Below are positions 2,206 to 62,559 of a DNA stretch of 64,000 nucleotides, one piece after another. Within the stretch, counting starts at the first letter, position 1. Each line of letters opens with the position of its first letter. The notes under the pieces are model-generated. The model worked only from the letters and a program-made list of their open reading frames with translations. It had not been told where the DNA came from and ran no database searches. The position numbers were made by a program, and so were the translations under genes. Source of the stretch: a bacterium (GTDB lineage: Bacteria; RBG-13-66-14); assembly GCA_035528375.1 (NCBI GenBank), contig DATKYS010000118.1, positions 7,824 to 71,823 on the forward strand, read 5' to 3'.

Positions 2206-2223
2206 AAACCCGAGAGGTGCGCG

Positions 2224-3846
2224 ATGGCCGGAAAGGAGACAACGGGGGGCGGAACAGGGGATTTAAACCCCTCGTCGAACCCCTTGCCCGTGAACAACCT
2301 CTTCCTATCCCCCACCGACGGGCTGCGTCGGGCGATGGAGGTGATAGACGCCGGACGGTTGGGGATGGCGCTGGTGGTGGATACCGACGGCCGGTTGCTG
2401 GGCACGCTCACCGACGGCGACGTTCGGCGCCACCTGCTCGGGGGAGGCGGCCGGGACGAGAGTGTGGAAAAGCTGTACTGCCGCAAGCCGCTGACGGCGA
2501 CGACGGGGTACGACCGCGCCGGGCTCGCCCGGATCGCCCGGGAACGCGGAATCAAGCTCATCCCCTTCATCGAGGACGGACGGCCTACGCGGCTCCTGAC
2601 CCCGGACGATAGGTCGGGGAAGGACCGGCCGGCGATACTGGGCGGCGCTCCGGCATTCCGGGAGCCCATACCGGTGGCCAGACCCACCCTGCCCAAGTTC
2701 GGGGAGATTTCCGACGAGCTGGAGCGCGTGCTCGCGAGCGGGATCATAACGAACGGTCCGCAGGTGGAGGCCTTCGAGCGGGAAGCGGCGGAGTGGATGG
2801 GGACGGAGCCGGAGAAGGTGGTCGCGGTCTCGAGCTGCACCACGGGGCTGGTCCTGGCACTCTCACGCATCGAAGCGCCCGGCGAGGTGGTGATGCCCAG
2901 CTTCACCTACTTCGCCACGGGGCTCGCGGCGACGTGGAACGCGCTGACACCGGTGTTCGTGGACGCAAGGCCGGACGACTTCAACGTGGACGCGGGGGCG
3001 GTGGAAAGGGCCGTCGTGGATAAAACGAACGGCGTGCCGAACGGCGCGCCGTTGGCCATCGTCGGCGTGTACGTCTTCGGCTGCCCGCCACCGGTCGTCG
3101 AACTGCGCAAGCTGGCCGACGCTCACGGGATACCGCTGATCCTCGACGCCGCACACGCCTTCGGCGCCGGACAGGACGGTACGCCGGCCGGGCGCTTCGG
3201 TGACATCGAAGTCTTCTCCCTCTCGCCCACCAAACCGGTCACCTCCGGGGAGGGCGGCCTGATCGTCTGTCGCGAAGAGGCGACCGCCGCCGACCTCAGG
3301 CGTCGCCGGAACCTCGGCCTCCTGGACTCGGCCACCGATCCCACCCGGGGCTTGAACGGCAGGATGAGCGAGTTCAACGCCGTGCTGGGAAGGGCCTCCC
3401 TGCGACACCTGGAGGAAAACCTCCAGACGCGCCACCGGCTGGTCCAGGTCTACCGCGACGAACTGGGGGACACACCCGGCCTGGGGTTCCAGAAGCTGCC
3501 GTCGGGCGCCGTCTCGACCTTCAAGGACCTCGCCCTCGTCGTGGATTCCGACACGTTGGGGATGACTCGCGACGACCTCGCCGAGGGGCTCGCCGCGGAG
3601 AACATCGGCACCAAGAAGTATTTCTCGCCGCCGCTGCACCTCCAGCGCCGCTTCGCCGGCCTATCCCGGACACAGGGACCGTTGAAGGTCACCGAGAAAC
3701 TCGCGGACGGCGTGCTCTGTCTCCCACTCTACTCCCACCAGGAGGAGGAGGACGTCCGGCGGGTGGCCGCGGCGTTGAAACGTCTCGTTGCGCACGGGGA
3801 AGAGGTCAACCGACGGCTGACCGAGTTACGTAGAGAATGGGAGTAA
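2224..3846 (+). CDS. CBS-domain / DegT-DnrJ-EryC1-StrS family PLP aminotransferase fusion (sugar aminotransferase)
   Basis: N-terminal CBS-like segment (MEVIDAGRLGMALVVDTDGRLLGTLTDGDVRRHLL) followed by DegT-type aminotransferase body (ILDAAHAFGAG, SLSPTKPVTSGEGG). True start is probably downstream of the palindromic element at 2231-2288 (GTG 2290 or ATG 2335). Confidence 0.7.
   Translation: MAGKETTGGGTGDLNPSSNPLPVNNLFLSPTDGLRRAMEVIDAGRLGMALVVDTDGRLLGTLTDGDVRRHLLGGGGRDESVEKLYCRKPLTATTGYDRAGLARIARERGIKLIPFIEDGRPTRLLTPDDRSGKDRPAILGGAPAFREPIPVARPTLPKFGEISDELERVLASGIITNGPQVEAFEREAAEWMGTEPEKVVAVSSCTTGLVLALSRIEAPGEVVMPSFTYFATGLAATWNALTPVFVDARPDDFNVDAGAVERAVVDKTNGVPNGAPLAIVGVYVFGCPPPVVELRKLADAHGIPLILDAAHAFGAGQDGTPAGRFGDIEVFSLSPTKPVTSGEGGLIVCREEATAADLRRRRNLGLLDSATDPTRGLNGRMSEFNAVLGRASLRHLEENLQTRHRLVQVYRDELGDTPGLGFQKLPSGAVSTFKDLALVVDSDTLGMTRDDLAEGLAAENIGTKKYFSPPLHLQRRFAGLSRTQGPLKVTEKLADGVLCLPLYSHQEEEDVRRVAAALKRLVAHGEEVNRRLTELRREWE
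2231..2288. repeat. palindromic element copy A: GAAAGGAGACAA-cgggg..-GGGGATTTAAACCCC-tcgtcg-AACCCCTTGCC at the 5' end of the CBS-aminotransferase gene
   Basis: Same left (GAAAGGAGACAA), core (GGGG(A)TTTAAACCCC) and right (AACCCCTTGCC) blocks as copies B and C. Confidence 0.7.
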
Positions 3847-19670: not shown

Positions 19671-19700
19671 GGGGATTGGAAAATCGTCCCGATCGGGATA

Positions 19701-25592: not shown

Positions 25593-25655
25593 GGGCGTTA
25601 AATGGAGGGCAAGGTCCGGGCCCCTTGCCTGTTCAGTACATCGGATTGAATTCGT

Positions 25656-26756
25656 CTACCCGCCGACGAGCCACCGGATGCTCCGTCCCAGGAACGCCAG
25701 CGCCTCGGTCTCGGAGGAGATGTTCTCCCAGGCGAAGGAGAGGAAGACCGAGCGGTGATTCCCGCTCTCGGAGGCCACGCCGCAGACGTCGCCGCGGGTG
25801 CGGTTCGTGAAAAGGACCTGCGCCCCGGCGGAGGCGGTGAAGCCGTCGCTCCAGTTCCCCACGATTTGCCTGTCACCGAAGAGGGACAGGGAGAGACCGG
25901 CGTTCAGCTCCCCCTCGGGCTCGGCGATGGCCACGAGGGTCTTGGCGTCGGCGCGCCAGTCCTTGACCCCCAACGCCTCCTCCAGGGAACCCGACGAGGC
26001 CGTCCCGCTCCGGGAGACCTGGCCCAGGTAGTTCTGGCTCACGAGGAGGAGCCGACCGCCGTCGTCCAGGTACCGCCGCAGCGCCCGGCGGTCGCTCTCG
26101 CTCAGGCAGACCTTGAGCGCGTCCAGGCCGGTGAAGTAGATGACCAGCCGGTAAGGTTCCAGCTCGGCGTAGGTGGGGCCGCTGGAGTTGTGGCTGACCA
26201 CGCGGGTGTCGTAGTTCACCCCGAGCGCGTCCAGCGCCGCGGTGTACCGTTCGTGGACGTCCACCCCGTAGGGGTTGCCGTTGTTCACGCCGTCGTCGTC
26301 GTCCACCAGGAGCACCGGCCCGACATCCAGCCCCGAAAGGTCCGGCGGGCCCTTGGGCTCGACGGTGACCGGCGTCTCGACCACCGCGGTCCGCGCCGAG
26401 ATTTCGAGCACGGCCCGCAGCGGGTCGCGGGCCAGGTAGGCCTTGTACGACCCGGCCGTGGCCGCGGGGTAAACCAGGAAGACGGCGTCCGCGCCGGACT
26501 GGTAAAAATTCCCCCCGACGACGTGCCCCACGGGACCGCCCAGACGTCCCCCGCTGTCGAGGTGCGCCGCGCGCGCGATGAGCCCCAGGCTGGCCTCCCC
26601 GGCGGTCAGCGAGTCGGACACCTGCACCGTGCACTCCTCGTCCAGGTAGAGCACGACGTAGGTCACGTCCTCCTGGGCGTAGCAGCGGACGTTGGTCACG
26701 CGCGCCCCGAAGGCCGCGACCGCCAGCGCGAGAAAGATGAAAACCGCTCTTTTCAC
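25656..26756 (-). CDS. secreted protein of unknown function, distant third member of the 16358/17243 family
   Basis: GTG start with GGGGAG SD. Signal peptide VKRAVFIFLALAVAAFG. Collinear blocks VLLVDDDDGVNNGNPYGVD, YRLVIYFTGLDA, DDGGRLLLVSQNY mirror the paralog family pattern. Confidence 0.5.
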   Translation of the reverse strand: MKRAVFIFLALAVAAFGARVTNVRCYAQEDVTYVVLYLDEECTVQVSDSLTAGEASLGLIARAAHLDSGGRLGGPVGHVVGGNFYQSGADAVFLVYPAATAGSYKAYLARDPLRAVLEISARTAVVETPVTVEPKGPPDLSGLDVGPVLLVDDDDGVNNGNPYGVDVHERYTAALDALGVNYDTRVVSHNSSGPTYAELEPYRLVIYFTGLDALKVCLSESDRRALRRYLDDGGRLLLVSQNYLGQVSRSGTASSGSLEEALGVKDWRADAKTLVAIAEPEGELNAGLSLSLFGDRQIVGNWSDGFTASAGAQVLFTNRTRGDVCGVASESGNHRSVFLSFAWENISSETEALAFLGRSIRWLVGG

Positions 26757-26786
26757 CGACTCCCCTTTTTCCAACCATTCTACCAG

Positions 26787-26817
26787 AAAGGAGACAAGGG
26801 GTTTAAACCCCTTGTCC
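26787..26817. repeat. palindromic element copy B: GAAAGGAGACAAGGGGTTTAAACCCCTTGTCC (perfect 22-bp palindrome ACAAGGGGTTTAAACCCCTTGT)
   Basis: Seen directly. Lies in the recG / secreted-protein intergenic region, just upstream of a TGGTAGAAT extended -10-like motif (minus strand, 26777-26785). Confidence 0.8.
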
Positions 26818-26843
26818 TTTGTCAAGGGCTGATTCGGTCCCGC

Positions 26844-29123
26844 CTACGCCACGACCCCCAGGTCGCCGGAGCCGTAAACCGATTCCAGGCGCCGTTTGAG
26901 CCGGGGGTGTTTTTCCAGCTCCGGGTCGTCCTCGAGCAGGCGCCGGGCCGCTTCCCGGGCCTCCTCGAGCATCCTCCGGTCGGTGACCAGCGTGGCCAGG
27001 GCCACGTCGGGCAGACCGTGCTGCCGCGTCCCGAGGAGCTCACCTGGGCCGCGCAGCTCGAGGTCCAGCTCGGCCAGGCGGAAGCCGTCGTCGGTCTCGG
27101 TCATCGCCCGCAGGCGCCGTTTGGCCGCGTCGGTCAGCCCCCTCCCCGAGACGAGGTAACAGCGGGCGGAGTGCGGGCTTCTCGCCACCCGGCCCCGGAG
27201 CTGGTGCAGCTGCGACAGGCCGAACTGCTGGGCCTCCTCCACCACCATCACCGTGGCGTTGGGCACGTCTATCCCCACCTCCACCACCGTGGTGGCGACC
27301 AAGACGTCCAGTTTGCCGGTGGCGAAGGAGCGCATCGTCCTCTCCTTCTCCAAAGAATCCAGGCGACCGTGGACCAGCCCGAGCCTCAACTCGGCCAGGG
27401 GGCCCTCCCGGAGTTCGTCGTAGCGCGCGGTGGCGGCGGCGAGGCCTTTTTCCAAAGATTCCTCCACCAGCGGGCAGACGACGAAGGCCTGACGCCCGCG
27501 GGCGGCCTCCTCCCGGATGAAATCGAAGGCCTCCCGGGCGTTCCTCCCCGAGAGCCACCGGGTCTCCACGGGGCGGCGACCGGGGGGGAGCTCGTCAATG
27601 ACCGAGGAATCCAGGTCGCCGTAAACGGTGAGCGCCAGGGAGCGGGGGATGGGTGTGGCCGTCATCACCAGGACGTTGGTCGAGGGCGGGCAGAGCCTGC
27701 CGCGTTGGGCCACGCCGAAGCGGTGCTGCTCGTCAACCACGGCCAGACCCAGGCGGGGGAAAACGACTCCCTCCTGGATGAGCGCGGTGGTACCGATGGT
27801 TACGCCGGGCTCGCCGGCAGCAATCGCCTCGAGTGCCGGCCTCCGGGCGCGGTCCTTCACGCCGCCCGTGACGAGATGGCAGGGCACGCCGAGCGGATCG
27901 AGAACGCGGCGGAAGGTGCGGTGGTGCTGTCGGGCGAGCACCTCGGTGGGCGCCATGAGCGCCGCCTGCCACCCGGCTTCCACCGCCAGGAGCATCGCCA
28001 GGAGGGCCACGACCGTCTTCCCCGACCCAACGTCGCCCTGGAGGAGACGGTTCATGGGTCTCGACTGGGCCAGGTCGTGGCGGATGCGTTCCAGGACGCG
28101 TTTCTGCGCTCCGGTGAGCTCGAAGCCCAGCTTGTCGAGGGCGCGGCGGACCAACTCGCCCCCGGCCTCGATCCTGCCGCCCGAGGTTTTATCAAGGCGC
28201 ATCCGCTCGCGCAGGACCGCCAACTGCAAGAGGAACAGGCCGTCGAAGGCCAGGCGCCGGCGGGCTCTCTCGGGGGCGTCGAGGTCGGGCGGGTAGTGGA
28301 GGTGCTCGAACGCCTCGGCCAGCCCCGGCAGCCCCCGGGGCGCCCACACCTCTTCGGGAACGTGGTCCTGGAGTTTCGGCAGGTACCGGTCGAGAACGCG
28401 GCGGACGAGCGTGCGGAGGTAGCGCTGACCGAGCCCCTCCGTCAGGCCGTAGGTGGGCACGATGCGTCCGAAGGCCAGGGGGTCCTCGCCCGCGTCCAGG
28501 AACTCGAAATCGGGGTTGATGAGAGCGCCGCCGTCCTGAGGGCTGACCTTGCCGAAGGCCACCAGGCGGCGGCCGGGCCTGAGCTTTTCCGCCAGGTACA
28601 GCGCGTTGAACCAGGTGAGGACGAGGCTCCCGCCCTCTCCGGTCAAAATCGCGCTCAGGCGCGGTTTTCGACCCCTGAAACCGCGGATGAGCTCCACGCT
28701 CCTGAGCTCGCCGACCACGGTGACCTCCTCCCCCGCCCGCAGCCGGTCCAGCGGGACCAGGCGCGACCGGTCCTGGTAACCGCGGGGCTCGCAGGCGAAG
28801 AGATCGTCCACGGTGAAGAGGCCGAGCCTCTTCAGGCGCTCGTACCGGGCGGGACCGACGCCCTTCTCGTAGAGCAGGGGACGCCCGGCCAGATCGTCCA
28901 CACTCCACCCATCTTTCGGCAGGGGAGGTTCGGACGGCTTCGGGCACGCCTTTTGCTTCAGATATTCACGCCATTCCCGGGTGAATTTACGCAGGCGGTC
29001 CGCCCGCCGGTCGGCGGGCAGGGAATCCAGACCGAGGACGAGATCCCGGCAACGCCCCAGGGCGTCGGAGTCCGATTCCAACTCGTCCAGCCAGCCCAGG
29101 AGCCGCGCCCCCAGGTCCGGCAT
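26844..29123 (-). CDS. recG: ATP-dependent DNA helicase RecG
   Basis: Walker A GDVGSGKT, DEQHRFG (DExH), helicase C region and wedge-domain N-terminus. The start is uncertain. The ORF-track start at 29306 overlaps a +strand promoter-like region, so an internal ATG at 29123 was used. Confidence 0.8.
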   Translation of the reverse strand: MPDLGARLLGWLDELESDSDALGRCRDLVLGLDSLPADRRADRLRKFTREWREYLKQKACPKPSEPPLPKDGWSVDDLAGRPLLYEKGVGPARYERLKRLGLFTVDDLFACEPRGYQDRSRLVPLDRLRAGEEVTVVGELRSVELIRGFRGRKPRLSAILTGEGGSLVLTWFNALYLAEKLRPGRRLVAFGKVSPQDGGALINPDFEFLDAGEDPLAFGRIVPTYGLTEGLGQRYLRTLVRRVLDRYLPKLQDHVPEEVWAPRGLPGLAEAFEHLHYPPDLDAPERARRRLAFDGLFLLQLAVLRERMRLDKTSGGRIEAGGELVRRALDKLGFELTGAQKRVLERIRHDLAQSRPMNRLLQGDVGSGKTVVALLAMLLAVEAGWQAALMAPTEVLARQHHRTFRRVLDPLGVPCHLVTGGVKDRARRPALEAIAAGEPGVTIGTTALIQEGVVFPRLGLAVVDEQHRFGVAQRGRLCPPSTNVLVMTATPIPRSLALTVYGDLDSSVIDELPPGRRPVETRWLSGRNAREAFDFIREEAARGRQAFVVCPLVEESLEKGLAAATARYDELREGPLAELRLGLVHGRLDSLEKERTMRSFATGKLDVLVATTVVEVGIDVPNATVMVVEEAQQFGLSQLHQLRGRVARSPHSARCYLVSGRGLTDAAKRRLRAMTETDDGFRLAELDLELRGPGELLGTRQHGLPDVALATLVTDRRMLEEAREAARRLLEDDPELEKHPRLKRRLESVYGSGDLGVVA

Positions 29124-29253
29124 CCGGTCGGCCAGGGCGTATCCGCTCCGCTCGAGGGCCTCCAACGGGCGGGCTATCCGGCGGGCGACGCTTTCAAGTC
29201 CGGTCTCCACGCTCCCTAGTCTACCAACCCCGGCGCATCCCGACAATGTTTCT

Positions 29254-40876: not shown

Positions 40877-40983
40877 CGGGGACGCCCGGCGACCGGGGCG
40901 GCTGTGGTAGAATAAACGTCGAGAAAATCCGACGGCCCCGCACGTCCGAACCGACCCACCACCCGACTCCCGGGAGTCACGCC

Positions 40984-41928
<945 letters not shown>

Positions 41929-41932
41929 CTCT

Positions 41933-62498: not shown

Positions 62499-62559
62499 GG
62501 AAGGAGACAAGGGGTTTAACCGAGCGAAGCGAGCTATGCCCCTGGCAAAACCCCTTGCC
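62499..62559. repeat. palindromic element copy C: GGAAGGAGACAAGGGGTTTAACC - 25-nt insert - AAAACCCCTTGCC, immediately upstream of rpe start
   Basis: Shares GGAGACAAGGGGTTTAA and AACCCCTTG(C/T)C with copies at 2231-2288 and 26787-26817. Confidence 0.75.

Follow-up and report, generated by a model that had tools for sequence, protein, structure and literature searches.

A mobile hairpin repeat, very probably of the REP type, in a Coatesbacteria-type genome

In the repetitive extragenic palindromic (REP) and bacterial interspersed mosaic element (BIME) system of Escherichia coli, short imperfect palindromes whose hairpins bear a conserved head on one side of the foot are present in many, mainly extragenic copies, insert without target duplication and flank the gene of an IS200-like Y1 transposase, RayT (TnpA-REP, YafM). 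RAYTs are single-copy Y1 transposases flanked by the REPs that they disperse (PMC5581495, PMC3116915), and the E. coli RayT requires the hairpin together with its 5' tetranucleotide for binding and cleavage of single-stranded DNA (PMC3479197). Here we describe a hairpin repeat from a 64,000-nucleotide stretch of bacterial DNA of the lineage RBG-13-66-14 (contig DATKYS010000118.1, positions 7,824 to 71,823, forward strand; hereafter the window). An earlier note on this DNA had pointed out three copies of the motif (A, B and C) and proposed that they were regulatory sites, with a REP-like element as one option. It is the latter option that the analysis bore out: the motif is a mobile dispersed hairpin repeat and very probably a REP-type element, that is, a non-autonomous mobile DNA hairpin with many copies in this Coatesbacteria-type genome.

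The present repeat resembles the E. coli REPs in being a short imperfect palindrome with a one-sided head, in its many, mostly extragenic copies and in inserting without a consistent target duplication, and the same hairpin flanks a Y1 transposase gene, here in other phyla. Unlike in E. coli, the head is GGAG(A) and not GTAG, a BIME-type mosaic is absent, some copies lie in frame within genes, and the associated RayT clade has its own signature and aligns weakly with the E. coli RayT (E = 0.005). The Pseudomonas REPINs (PMC3116915, PMC5581495) also form hairpins, are non-autonomous and differ in insertion between relatives, as here; they are spread by a domesticated transposase present as a single copy, as would apply to this repeat. 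However, REPINs are doublets of two REPs about 70–100 nt apart, whereas the common unit here is a single 27-nt hairpin, and nesting inside the loop occurs here. The 12–15-nt arms can be viewed as a REP and an inverted REP without a spacer, and the long form of the repeat as arm, spacer and arm. Rickettsia palindromic elements (RPE; PMC10969869) are likewise palindromic repeats tolerated in frame in unrelated coding genes; comparable cases here are lipA and others for the hairpin and recG for a 30-nt unit found in its loop. RPEs, however, are about 100–150 bp long, are confined to Rickettsia and have no sequence relationship to this repeat, most copies of which are intergenic. Finally, the ends of IS200/IS605 insertion sequences (IS608, ISDra2) are subterminal imperfect hairpins that, with a 5' guide tetranucleotide, are recognised by the Y1 HUH transposase, and single-stranded DNA transposition of this type leaves no target duplication (PMC3479197). 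Those ends bound a transposase-carrying element, whereas here the hairpin alone is the repeat and has no internal gene.

On re-reading the sequence, the three copies were found at the positions given previously. They and their parts are as follows:

2231..2288, + strand: copy A, a nested, partly decayed element; its span from head to tail (2235-2288) is 54 nt

2235-2247, + strand: outer left arm of copy A, GGAGACAACGGGG, following the purine-rich flank gaaa

2255-2274, + strand: inner hairpin of copy A, CAGGGGATTTAAACCCCTCG

2278-2288, + strand: outer right arm of copy A, AACCCCTTGCC

26786..26820, + strand: copy B, the short form gaaa-GGAGA-CAAGGGGTTTAAACCCCTTG-TCC-ttt

62503..62559, + strand: copy C, the long form (57 nt), consisting of GGAGACAAGGGGTTT, a 30-nt unit and AAACCCCTTGCC

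62518..62547, + strand: the 30-nt unit AACCGAGCGAAGCGAGCTATGCCCCTGGCA at the apex (TTT^AAA) of copy C

The palindrome of copy B, previously described as perfect and 22 bp long, is indeed perfect (GACAAGGGGTTTAAACCCCTTGTC, 26793-26816), but its length is 24 bp. Inserts of 6 nt in copy A and 25 nt in copy C had also been reported; in fact, the half-sites of both are separated by 30 nt more than those of B, the additional segment being 2248-2277 in A, with the inner hairpin, and 62518-62547 in C, with the unit AACCGAGCGAAGCGAGCTATGCCCCTGGCA. A prefix thought to be common to all three copies is shared by A and B (GAAAGGAGACAA), but copy C has GGAAGGAGACAA. The left arm of A, GGAGACAACGGGG, contains one additional base (C) compared with the consensus GGAGACAAGGGG. 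Copy A has genes for a UDP-GlcNAc 2-epimerase and a CBS-DegT aminotransferase as neighbours. Copy B has recG (26844-29210, - strand) on one side and, on the other, a secreted-type gene that lacks annotation (25656-26756, - strand). Copy C begins 4 nt past the stop codon of a gene for a PASTA-domain protein, and another 4 nt separate its end from the rpe start codon (ATG, 62564). These neighbouring genes (aminotransferase; recG and secreted-type protein; rpe) are functionally unrelated and the three copies are independent insertions. The 12-nt half-site alone occurs 3 times in the window against 0.70 expected, a count reached in 5 of 100 shuffles and thus weakly above chance; the claim that the motif exceeds chance holds for the full hairpin (0.00 and 0.02 expected).

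The core of the family is GGAGA + CAAGGGG-TTTAAA-CCCCTTG + YC, a hairpin with a one-sided head. The element measures about 27–35 nt, with the stem CAAGGGG(T/C)T...A(A/G)CCCCTTG and the GGAGA head at the stem foot. The consensus flanks are purine-rich (RARA) on the head side and pyrimidine-rich (YYYY) on the other, which extends the stem around an AGA bulge. A scan with the pattern GGAGACAAGGGG-N4-34-AACCCCTTG, one genome per species, gave 70 loci. Candidatus Coatesbacteria RBG_13_66_14 had 23 pattern matches in 22 loci, and the metagenome-assembled genome (MAG) SRP214966_co4_317 had 32 in 29 loci; these draft MAGs were covered in part, the lineage loci being retrieved as pieces of about 8 kb around exact matches (loci of this and other lineages are cited below by L numbers). 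An exact 25-mer of the repeat was present in 92 metagenome stretches. Among the aligned copies the short form with the loop TTTAAA is by far the commonest; the long form with the 30-nt insert, forms with two inserts and forms with other loop contents were also found, and a nested form, GACAAGG-GGAGACAAGGGGTTTAAACCCCTTG-TTCCA-CCCCTTGCC, is recurrent. Most copies are single hairpins, and an adjacent inverted pair was seen once (L034 5549/5619). A separate case is L019 2600-3350 (binned as 'Chloroflexi RBG_13_51_18', 63% GC), where two identical long-form elements with identical flanks are inverted around an N run; the contig is probably a Coatesbacteria-like scaffold that was assigned to the wrong bin and contains an artefact of scaffolding.

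The loop-closing pair was compared in 206 hairpins and was T:A in 161, C:G in 39 and a non-pair in 6, the two central bases being freely variable. This covariation and the variable spacing of the arms are more in keeping with a single strand that folds than with a fixed double-stranded operator. Predicted RNA and DNA folds were strong for copies B and C, with z between -2.2 and -4.2 (RNA: -20.1 kcal/mol, z = -4.2 for B; -22.1 kcal/mol, z = -2.2 for C). Short-form folds ranged from -18.7 to -20.1 kcal/mol with z about -4. The fold of copy A does not surpass those of shuffled sequences (z = -0.8 for RNA and +0.1 for DNA).

The placement of the copies relative to genes was evaluated for 158 copies found with a relaxed pattern, gene calls being made with a simple codon-bias caller. 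Intergenic positions were found for 114 of the 130 copies lying away from sequence edges. In co-directional spacers (89 copies) the head has the direction of the genes in 42 cases and the opposite one in 47. A further 13 copies are in divergent and 12 in convergent spacers, so that the proportions are like those of the background spacers (490 co-directional, 65 divergent and 57 convergent). Copies in co-directional spacers are at a median of 33 nt from the upstream stop and 35 nt from the downstream start; 34 of the 89 copies lie within 15 nt of the upstream stop and 20 within 15 nt of the downstream start. The elements fill short spacers of a compact genome, which is why the window copies appear just 5' of genes. 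Accordingly, the earlier statement that every copy stands immediately before a gene start is positionally right for B (33 nt) and C (4 nt), to which the preceding gene ends just as close (at 27 nt by coordinates in B and at 4 nt in C), but not for A, which most likely lies within an open reading frame (ORF). A specific link to gene starts was not confirmed, since orientation is random, spacer classes equal the background, and stops and starts are equally near. A role of GGAGA as a Shine-Dalgarno sequence brought to the start codon by folding was considered and rejected as a general one, because half of the copies are oppositely oriented; many downstream genes also own a Shine-Dalgarno sequence, and folding places the GG of the head in a paired region. 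Note that rpe, after copy C, has no Shine-Dalgarno sequence of its own except the partly paired GGAGA.

These data also bear on the regulatory proposal, in which the motif would be an operator of a dimeric transcription factor, or the site of another protein binding double-stranded DNA, that controls the downstream genes as a regulon. Such a reading is supported by palindromic half-sites conserved in sequence, by all three window copies being near gene starts and by the overlap of copy B with the -35 position of a conserved TGGTAGAAT box, the latter being the following feature:

26771..26779, - strand: extended -10-like box TGGTAGAAT, next to copy B and not part of the repeat

The box is also present in the orthologous flank of two related genomes. 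Promoter scans around A, B and C called no sigma-70-type promoter. Against an operator, the half-sites are spaced by 4, 34 or 64 nt, even at a single orthologous site, and thus vary by 30 to 60 nt; orientation and spacer class equal the background; sites are filled or empty between close relatives; some copies are inside coding sequence; pairing is preserved by compensatory changes; and the flanking genes have no functional relation. The copies are random with respect to gene starts and orientation and belong to a mobile dispersed repeat, which are the two outcomes that the earlier note itself had named as speaking against regulation. The operator hypothesis is therefore largely refuted, and we regard it as extremely improbable. 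Independently of the repeat, TGGTAGAAT recurs upstream of genes (window 26771-26779, - strand, and 40905-40913, + strand; L028 at about 270), and it looks like the local extended -10 consensus of this lineage.

A second possibility is a host-maintained RNA element, i.e., an mRNA hairpin acting as a terminator, 3'-end stabiliser, processing site or translational-coupling device. The REPs of E. coli do stabilise upstream mRNA. The RNA hairpins of the present repeat are stable, most copies lie in short co-directional spacers, often close to the upstream stop (34 of 89, as given above), and the TAA of the third frame serves as the stop codon of several upstream genes. In a terminator scan copy B was flagged as terminator-like on the - strand, being followed by a T-rich run on the strand of the flanking genes, and it may terminate recG transcripts. 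However, A and C were not flagged, the 3' flank of the family consensus is YYYY and not a T-run, and the organism owns ordinary A/T-tailed terminators elsewhere. The strand of the repeat is unbiased relative to transcription, a scan of the window with Rfam 15 at the gathering threshold gave no match at the repeat (tRNA-Gln alone was found), and the presence/absence pattern together with the RayT association accounts for the distribution without a host function. An RNA element maintained by the host is thus very unlikely, and a role in RNA is possible and better seen as a secondary use of some copies.

Evidence of mobility was obtained by comparing orthologous sites. L015, L024, L011, L029 and L043 have orthologous stretches in the window with about 85–90% identity, and the window therefore represents a third genome related to the two scanned ones. 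At five orthologous sites one genome carries the element and a relative lacks it; three of the empty sites are in the window:

25597..25603: empty site upstream of the dus start codon; filled in L011 2268-2292 (short form) and L015 5842-5895 (long form)

41929..41932: empty site, 4 nt between two genes; filled in a relative with an element of about 41 nt (L043 4536-4560)

19690..19694: empty site about 20 nt downstream of tRNA-Gln; filled in L029 285-339 (long form)

At a fourth site the element in L020 sits exactly within an overlapping GTGA stop/start, which is intact in L010. The fifth is the site of copy A, which is empty in L174 and filled with the long form in L172 and L173. The site of copy B is occupied in all three genomes compared; the loop is TTTAAA in two of them, one being L015 (short form, 7096), whereas the third has a tandem pair of 30-nt units there (L011 322-406). 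The orthologue of copy C is L024 1309-1363. Beside the empty dus site, a hairpin GGCAAGG-tccgggcc-CCTTGCC (window 25607-25629) is conserved in three genomes; its arms resemble those of the repeat, and it could represent an ancient, decayed copy or, alternatively, terminate the gene upstream.

The inverted-repeat arms, the variable internal content, one possible CGT duplication and several AT-rich outer flanks might instead indicate a conventional miniature inverted-repeat transposable element (MITE), i.e., a deletion derivative of a DDE-type insertion sequence that is moved by cut-and-paste and has terminal inverted repeats and target-site duplications, an alternative that the earlier note had also raised. 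The five filled/empty pairs revealed no consistent duplication, the element is only about 27–35 nt long and has an asymmetric head, and the sole transposase found beside the same hairpin, at 8 of 8 loci, is a Y1/HUH enzyme, a parent insertion sequence not being seen. We therefore consider a MITE very unlikely. The genes bracketed by inverted copies (L044, L050, L061, L025, L033) encode hydrogenase, Mfd-like, outer-membrane and UvrC-like proteins and no transposases.

The Y1/HUH enzyme was identified by a phmmer search of all six-frame ORFs with the E. coli RayT, in which the only match was in L031, from a WOR-3 bacterium that the pattern scan had also returned. This ORF matches Pfam Y1_Tnp (57.5 bits) and is flanked by a nested GACAAGGGGCTT...GGCAAGGGGCTTAAGCCCCTTGCC...AAGCCCCTTGTC on one side and by GACAAGGGGTTTAAACCCCTTGTC...CCCCTTGTCTCC on the other. 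Its homologues form a clade with the signature WxVTFVTHNxRxSxRM, PDHVH, WAQKFN and YxxxNHxKH, and several were named 'REP element-mobilizing transposase RayT' by JGI. Hairpins of the type AAGGGG-N6-CCCCTT were found on both sides of the RayT gene at all eight loci (L031, L072, L074-L079), the upstream hairpin of L079 lying just within the called ORF; by our arithmetic, about 0.002 such hairpins would be expected by chance in the approximately 31 kb of the RayT loci. The eight loci come from other phyla with a GC content of 0.42–0.63 and include a Symploca cyanobacterium and metagenome contigs. In L074 a tandem run of GGAGACAAGGGGCTT is located by RayT. The heads beside these genes vary (GGAGA, TTAGA, TAGGA, AGAGG). 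The genome scan had also matched the head-plus-hairpin in Nitrospiraceae, Prochloron, Hydrogenedentes and others, which the association of hairpin and RayT across phyla explains.

Taken together with the likeness to described REP systems, this association leads us to infer that the REP family is cognate to the L031-type RayT clade. Most likely, the hairpin would be copied as single-stranded DNA by RayT, an IS200-like Y1/HUH tyrosine transposase, which would bind to the hairpin in its folded state together with the 5' head, in the way the E. coli RayT recognises the GTAG-REP. The hairpin apex (TTT^AAA) would be a preferred landing site, from which the nested second hairpin of copy A or the 30-nt unit of copy C would follow. 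By analogy with the other phyla, RayT would mobilise the repeat in the present lineage too. Any effect on neighbouring genes would be secondary and specific to the copy: the hairpin of B may act as a 3' stabiliser or weak terminator and A as a translated or start-shifting insertion.

Several observations weigh against the assignment to REPs and this mechanism. The head is GGAG(A) rather than the canonical GTAG, and the copies are mostly singlets or nested forms, not REP doublets. One filled site has a possible 3-bp duplication (CGT) and AT-rich extra flanks, neither of which a pure Y1 mechanism predicts. The arms of B and C are unchanged between genomes whose flanks differ by about 10%, which could reflect a host function; since the related loci were retrieved by exact arm match, this comparison is biased and purifying selection on the arms is not claimed. 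In addition, searches of the window, 51 genome loci and 59 metagenome loci, together about 0.9 Mb of Coatesbacteria-like DNA, by phmmer with the E. coli RayT and two L031 proteins and by hmmsearch with the clade profile A1 gave no Y1_Tnp hit and no RayT of any clade. A homologue of high-GC appearance, P0054, was considered as a member of the lineage and rejected, as its contig (L079) comes from elsewhere. RayT homologues found only at NCBI are of low-GC composition.

A number of additional observations concern RayT loci and other carriers of the hairpin. In L031 2182-5037 the RayT-like domain and its flanking hairpins are in frame inside an ORF for an Eco57I-type N6-adenine methylase, just before the GNPPY motif, and the arrangement recurs in two more database proteins with PF07669 and PF01797 (listed proteins P0018 and P0027). 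The RayT-clade proteins P0015, P0016, P0019, P0053 and P0054 contain peptides of the GLKPVV, GLQPIA, KGLRPLV and DKGLPPLAP type, which are hairpin translations; judging by these peptides, the repeat appears to be inserted in frame into the gene of its own presumed transposase. A second, canonical RayT (L031 1500-2123; Pfam Y1_Tnp, 25.9 bits) is flanked by GTAGGGGCAGTTCATGAACTGCCCCTAC-type REPs, so that two RayT/REP pairs stand side by side in this WOR-3 genome. The identical 25-mer was also seen in contigs of low GC content (32–41%; L098, L102, L105, L108, L112, L115, L151, L153, L154 and L167), with tandem arrays spaced by 37 nt in L151 and by about 140–150 nt in L112 and L154, and Prochloron L021 contains a 148-bp tandem array of a TTGAAA-loop variant. 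The available pieces of these low-GC contigs and of L021 showed no RayT.

The less ordinary parts of the family are the in-frame insertions and the nested 30-nt unit. All lengths are multiples of three: 27 nt for the core, 30 nt for the insert, 54 nt for the nested form and 57 nt for the long form. Four of the six frames of the core are open (one translation is ARGLNPLSP), and the other two, one per strand, meet a TAA stop. With such lengths and open frames, insertions would be tolerated in tight spaces between genes, at the ends of genes and sometimes within them. Overlaps with gene calls were found for sixteen copies, and several gene products terminate in ...RQGV*, their stop codon being the TAA of the element. 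Clean in-frame internal insertions into strongly coding genes were found, for example in lipA (L090), L056, L080 and L143, all of them 27-nt hairpin elements:

L090 2307-2331: in lipA (lipoyl-synthase-like), after the radical-SAM cysteine motif and before the conserved block that follows it

L056 1721-1745: in-frame element

L080 754-778: in-frame element

L143 8398-8422: in-frame element

Copy A appears to be a further case. The feature concerned is located just upstream of it:

2214..2226, + strand: Shine-Dalgarno sequence GAGG(T) and ATG (2224-2226), conserved in four genomes

The ORF from this ATG passes in frame through copy A, where it reads KETTGGGTGDLNPSSNPLP, into the CBS/DegT aminotransferase. 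In the empty L174 the gene runs straight on from the conserved ATG (MVASLKKLF...), whereas in L172 and L173 the long-form element stands after codon 3, where the window has the nested form; all three filled genomes keep a reading frame that is open as far as the CBS domain. The aminotransferase product of the source record begins at GTG 2290 (P0122, 518 aa), and the related record P0124 starts at a TTG within the repeat. Either start is possible, but the conserved Shine-Dalgarno sequence with ATG and the preserved frame favour translation through the repeat. Thus, on sequence grounds, copy A is probably inside the aminotransferase ORF and translated through.

The 30-nt unit of copy C is non-palindromic, contains no inverted repeats and includes a GCGAAGC mini-hairpin motif. 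Altogether 41 copies were found in the lineage sequences, and among the DNA analysed the unit was seen only in high-GC, Coatesbacteria-like sequence. At the apex of hairpins it is oriented along the head in 8 cases and opposed to it in 13. It forms tandem arrays with slipped variants of 9 and 21 nt and also occurs alone in spacers. One orthologous site carries TTTAAA, one unit or two tandem units, and at the site of copy A the window has the inner hairpin, L172 and L173 the 30-nt unit. Further sites of the unit are as follows:

L011 332-391: 30-nt unit site

L022 6181-6240: 30-nt unit site

L016 4722-4781: 30-nt unit site

L052 7281-7384: 30-nt unit site

In the recG gene of a related genome the unit is in frame (L015 7761-7790, VEESPEPSNPSYAPGKKDL), and the corresponding window position (27443-27462, VEESLEKGL) is empty. 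In L062 (1983) and L024 (7864) an in-frame unit comes directly after the start codon (ATG) of a response-regulator-like gene, and L016 and L119 have such units within large genes. One may tentatively suppose, although we consider it rather doubtful, that the unit is a separate ultra-small mobile insertion landing at REP-hairpin apexes and in frame in genes. If so, cleavage of single strands and strand transfer of the RayT type at hairpin loops could have generated it as a by-product.

A second hairpin family was observed, with the arms GGGCGGGG...CCCCGCCC followed by TAC, i.e., a GTAG-type head on the opposite strand; it also carries the 30-nt unit, and there are chimeras with one arm per family around arrays of the unit. 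A loose GGCGGGG...CCCCGCC pattern for a second hairpin family gave only GC-rich noise in the window. The sites of the family with the GTAG-type head are as follows:

L044, about 735-770: second hairpin family

L052 7230-7384: second hairpin family

L033 3400-3560: second hairpin family

L046 2440-2580: second hairpin family

For genome annotation, these hairpins are to be masked as mobile repeats rather than described as operators or leaders; the repeat also disturbs the calling of start codons, as at the aminotransferase (GTG 2290 versus the conserved Shine-Dalgarno sequence with ATG 2224). The family extends REP-type repeats to an uncultured candidate phylum and connects one particular REP sequence with one particular RayT clade in Cyanobacteria, WOR-3 and other phyla; if this holds, a single REP sequence would be common to distant phyla together with one RayT clade. 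The REP family and the 30-nt unit would likewise, if correctly interpreted, constitute a 'coding-compatible' repeat system with lengths in multiples of three and most frames open. The insertions into hairpin loops and those lying in frame in essential-type genes are examples from nature that bear on how RayT disseminates REPs.

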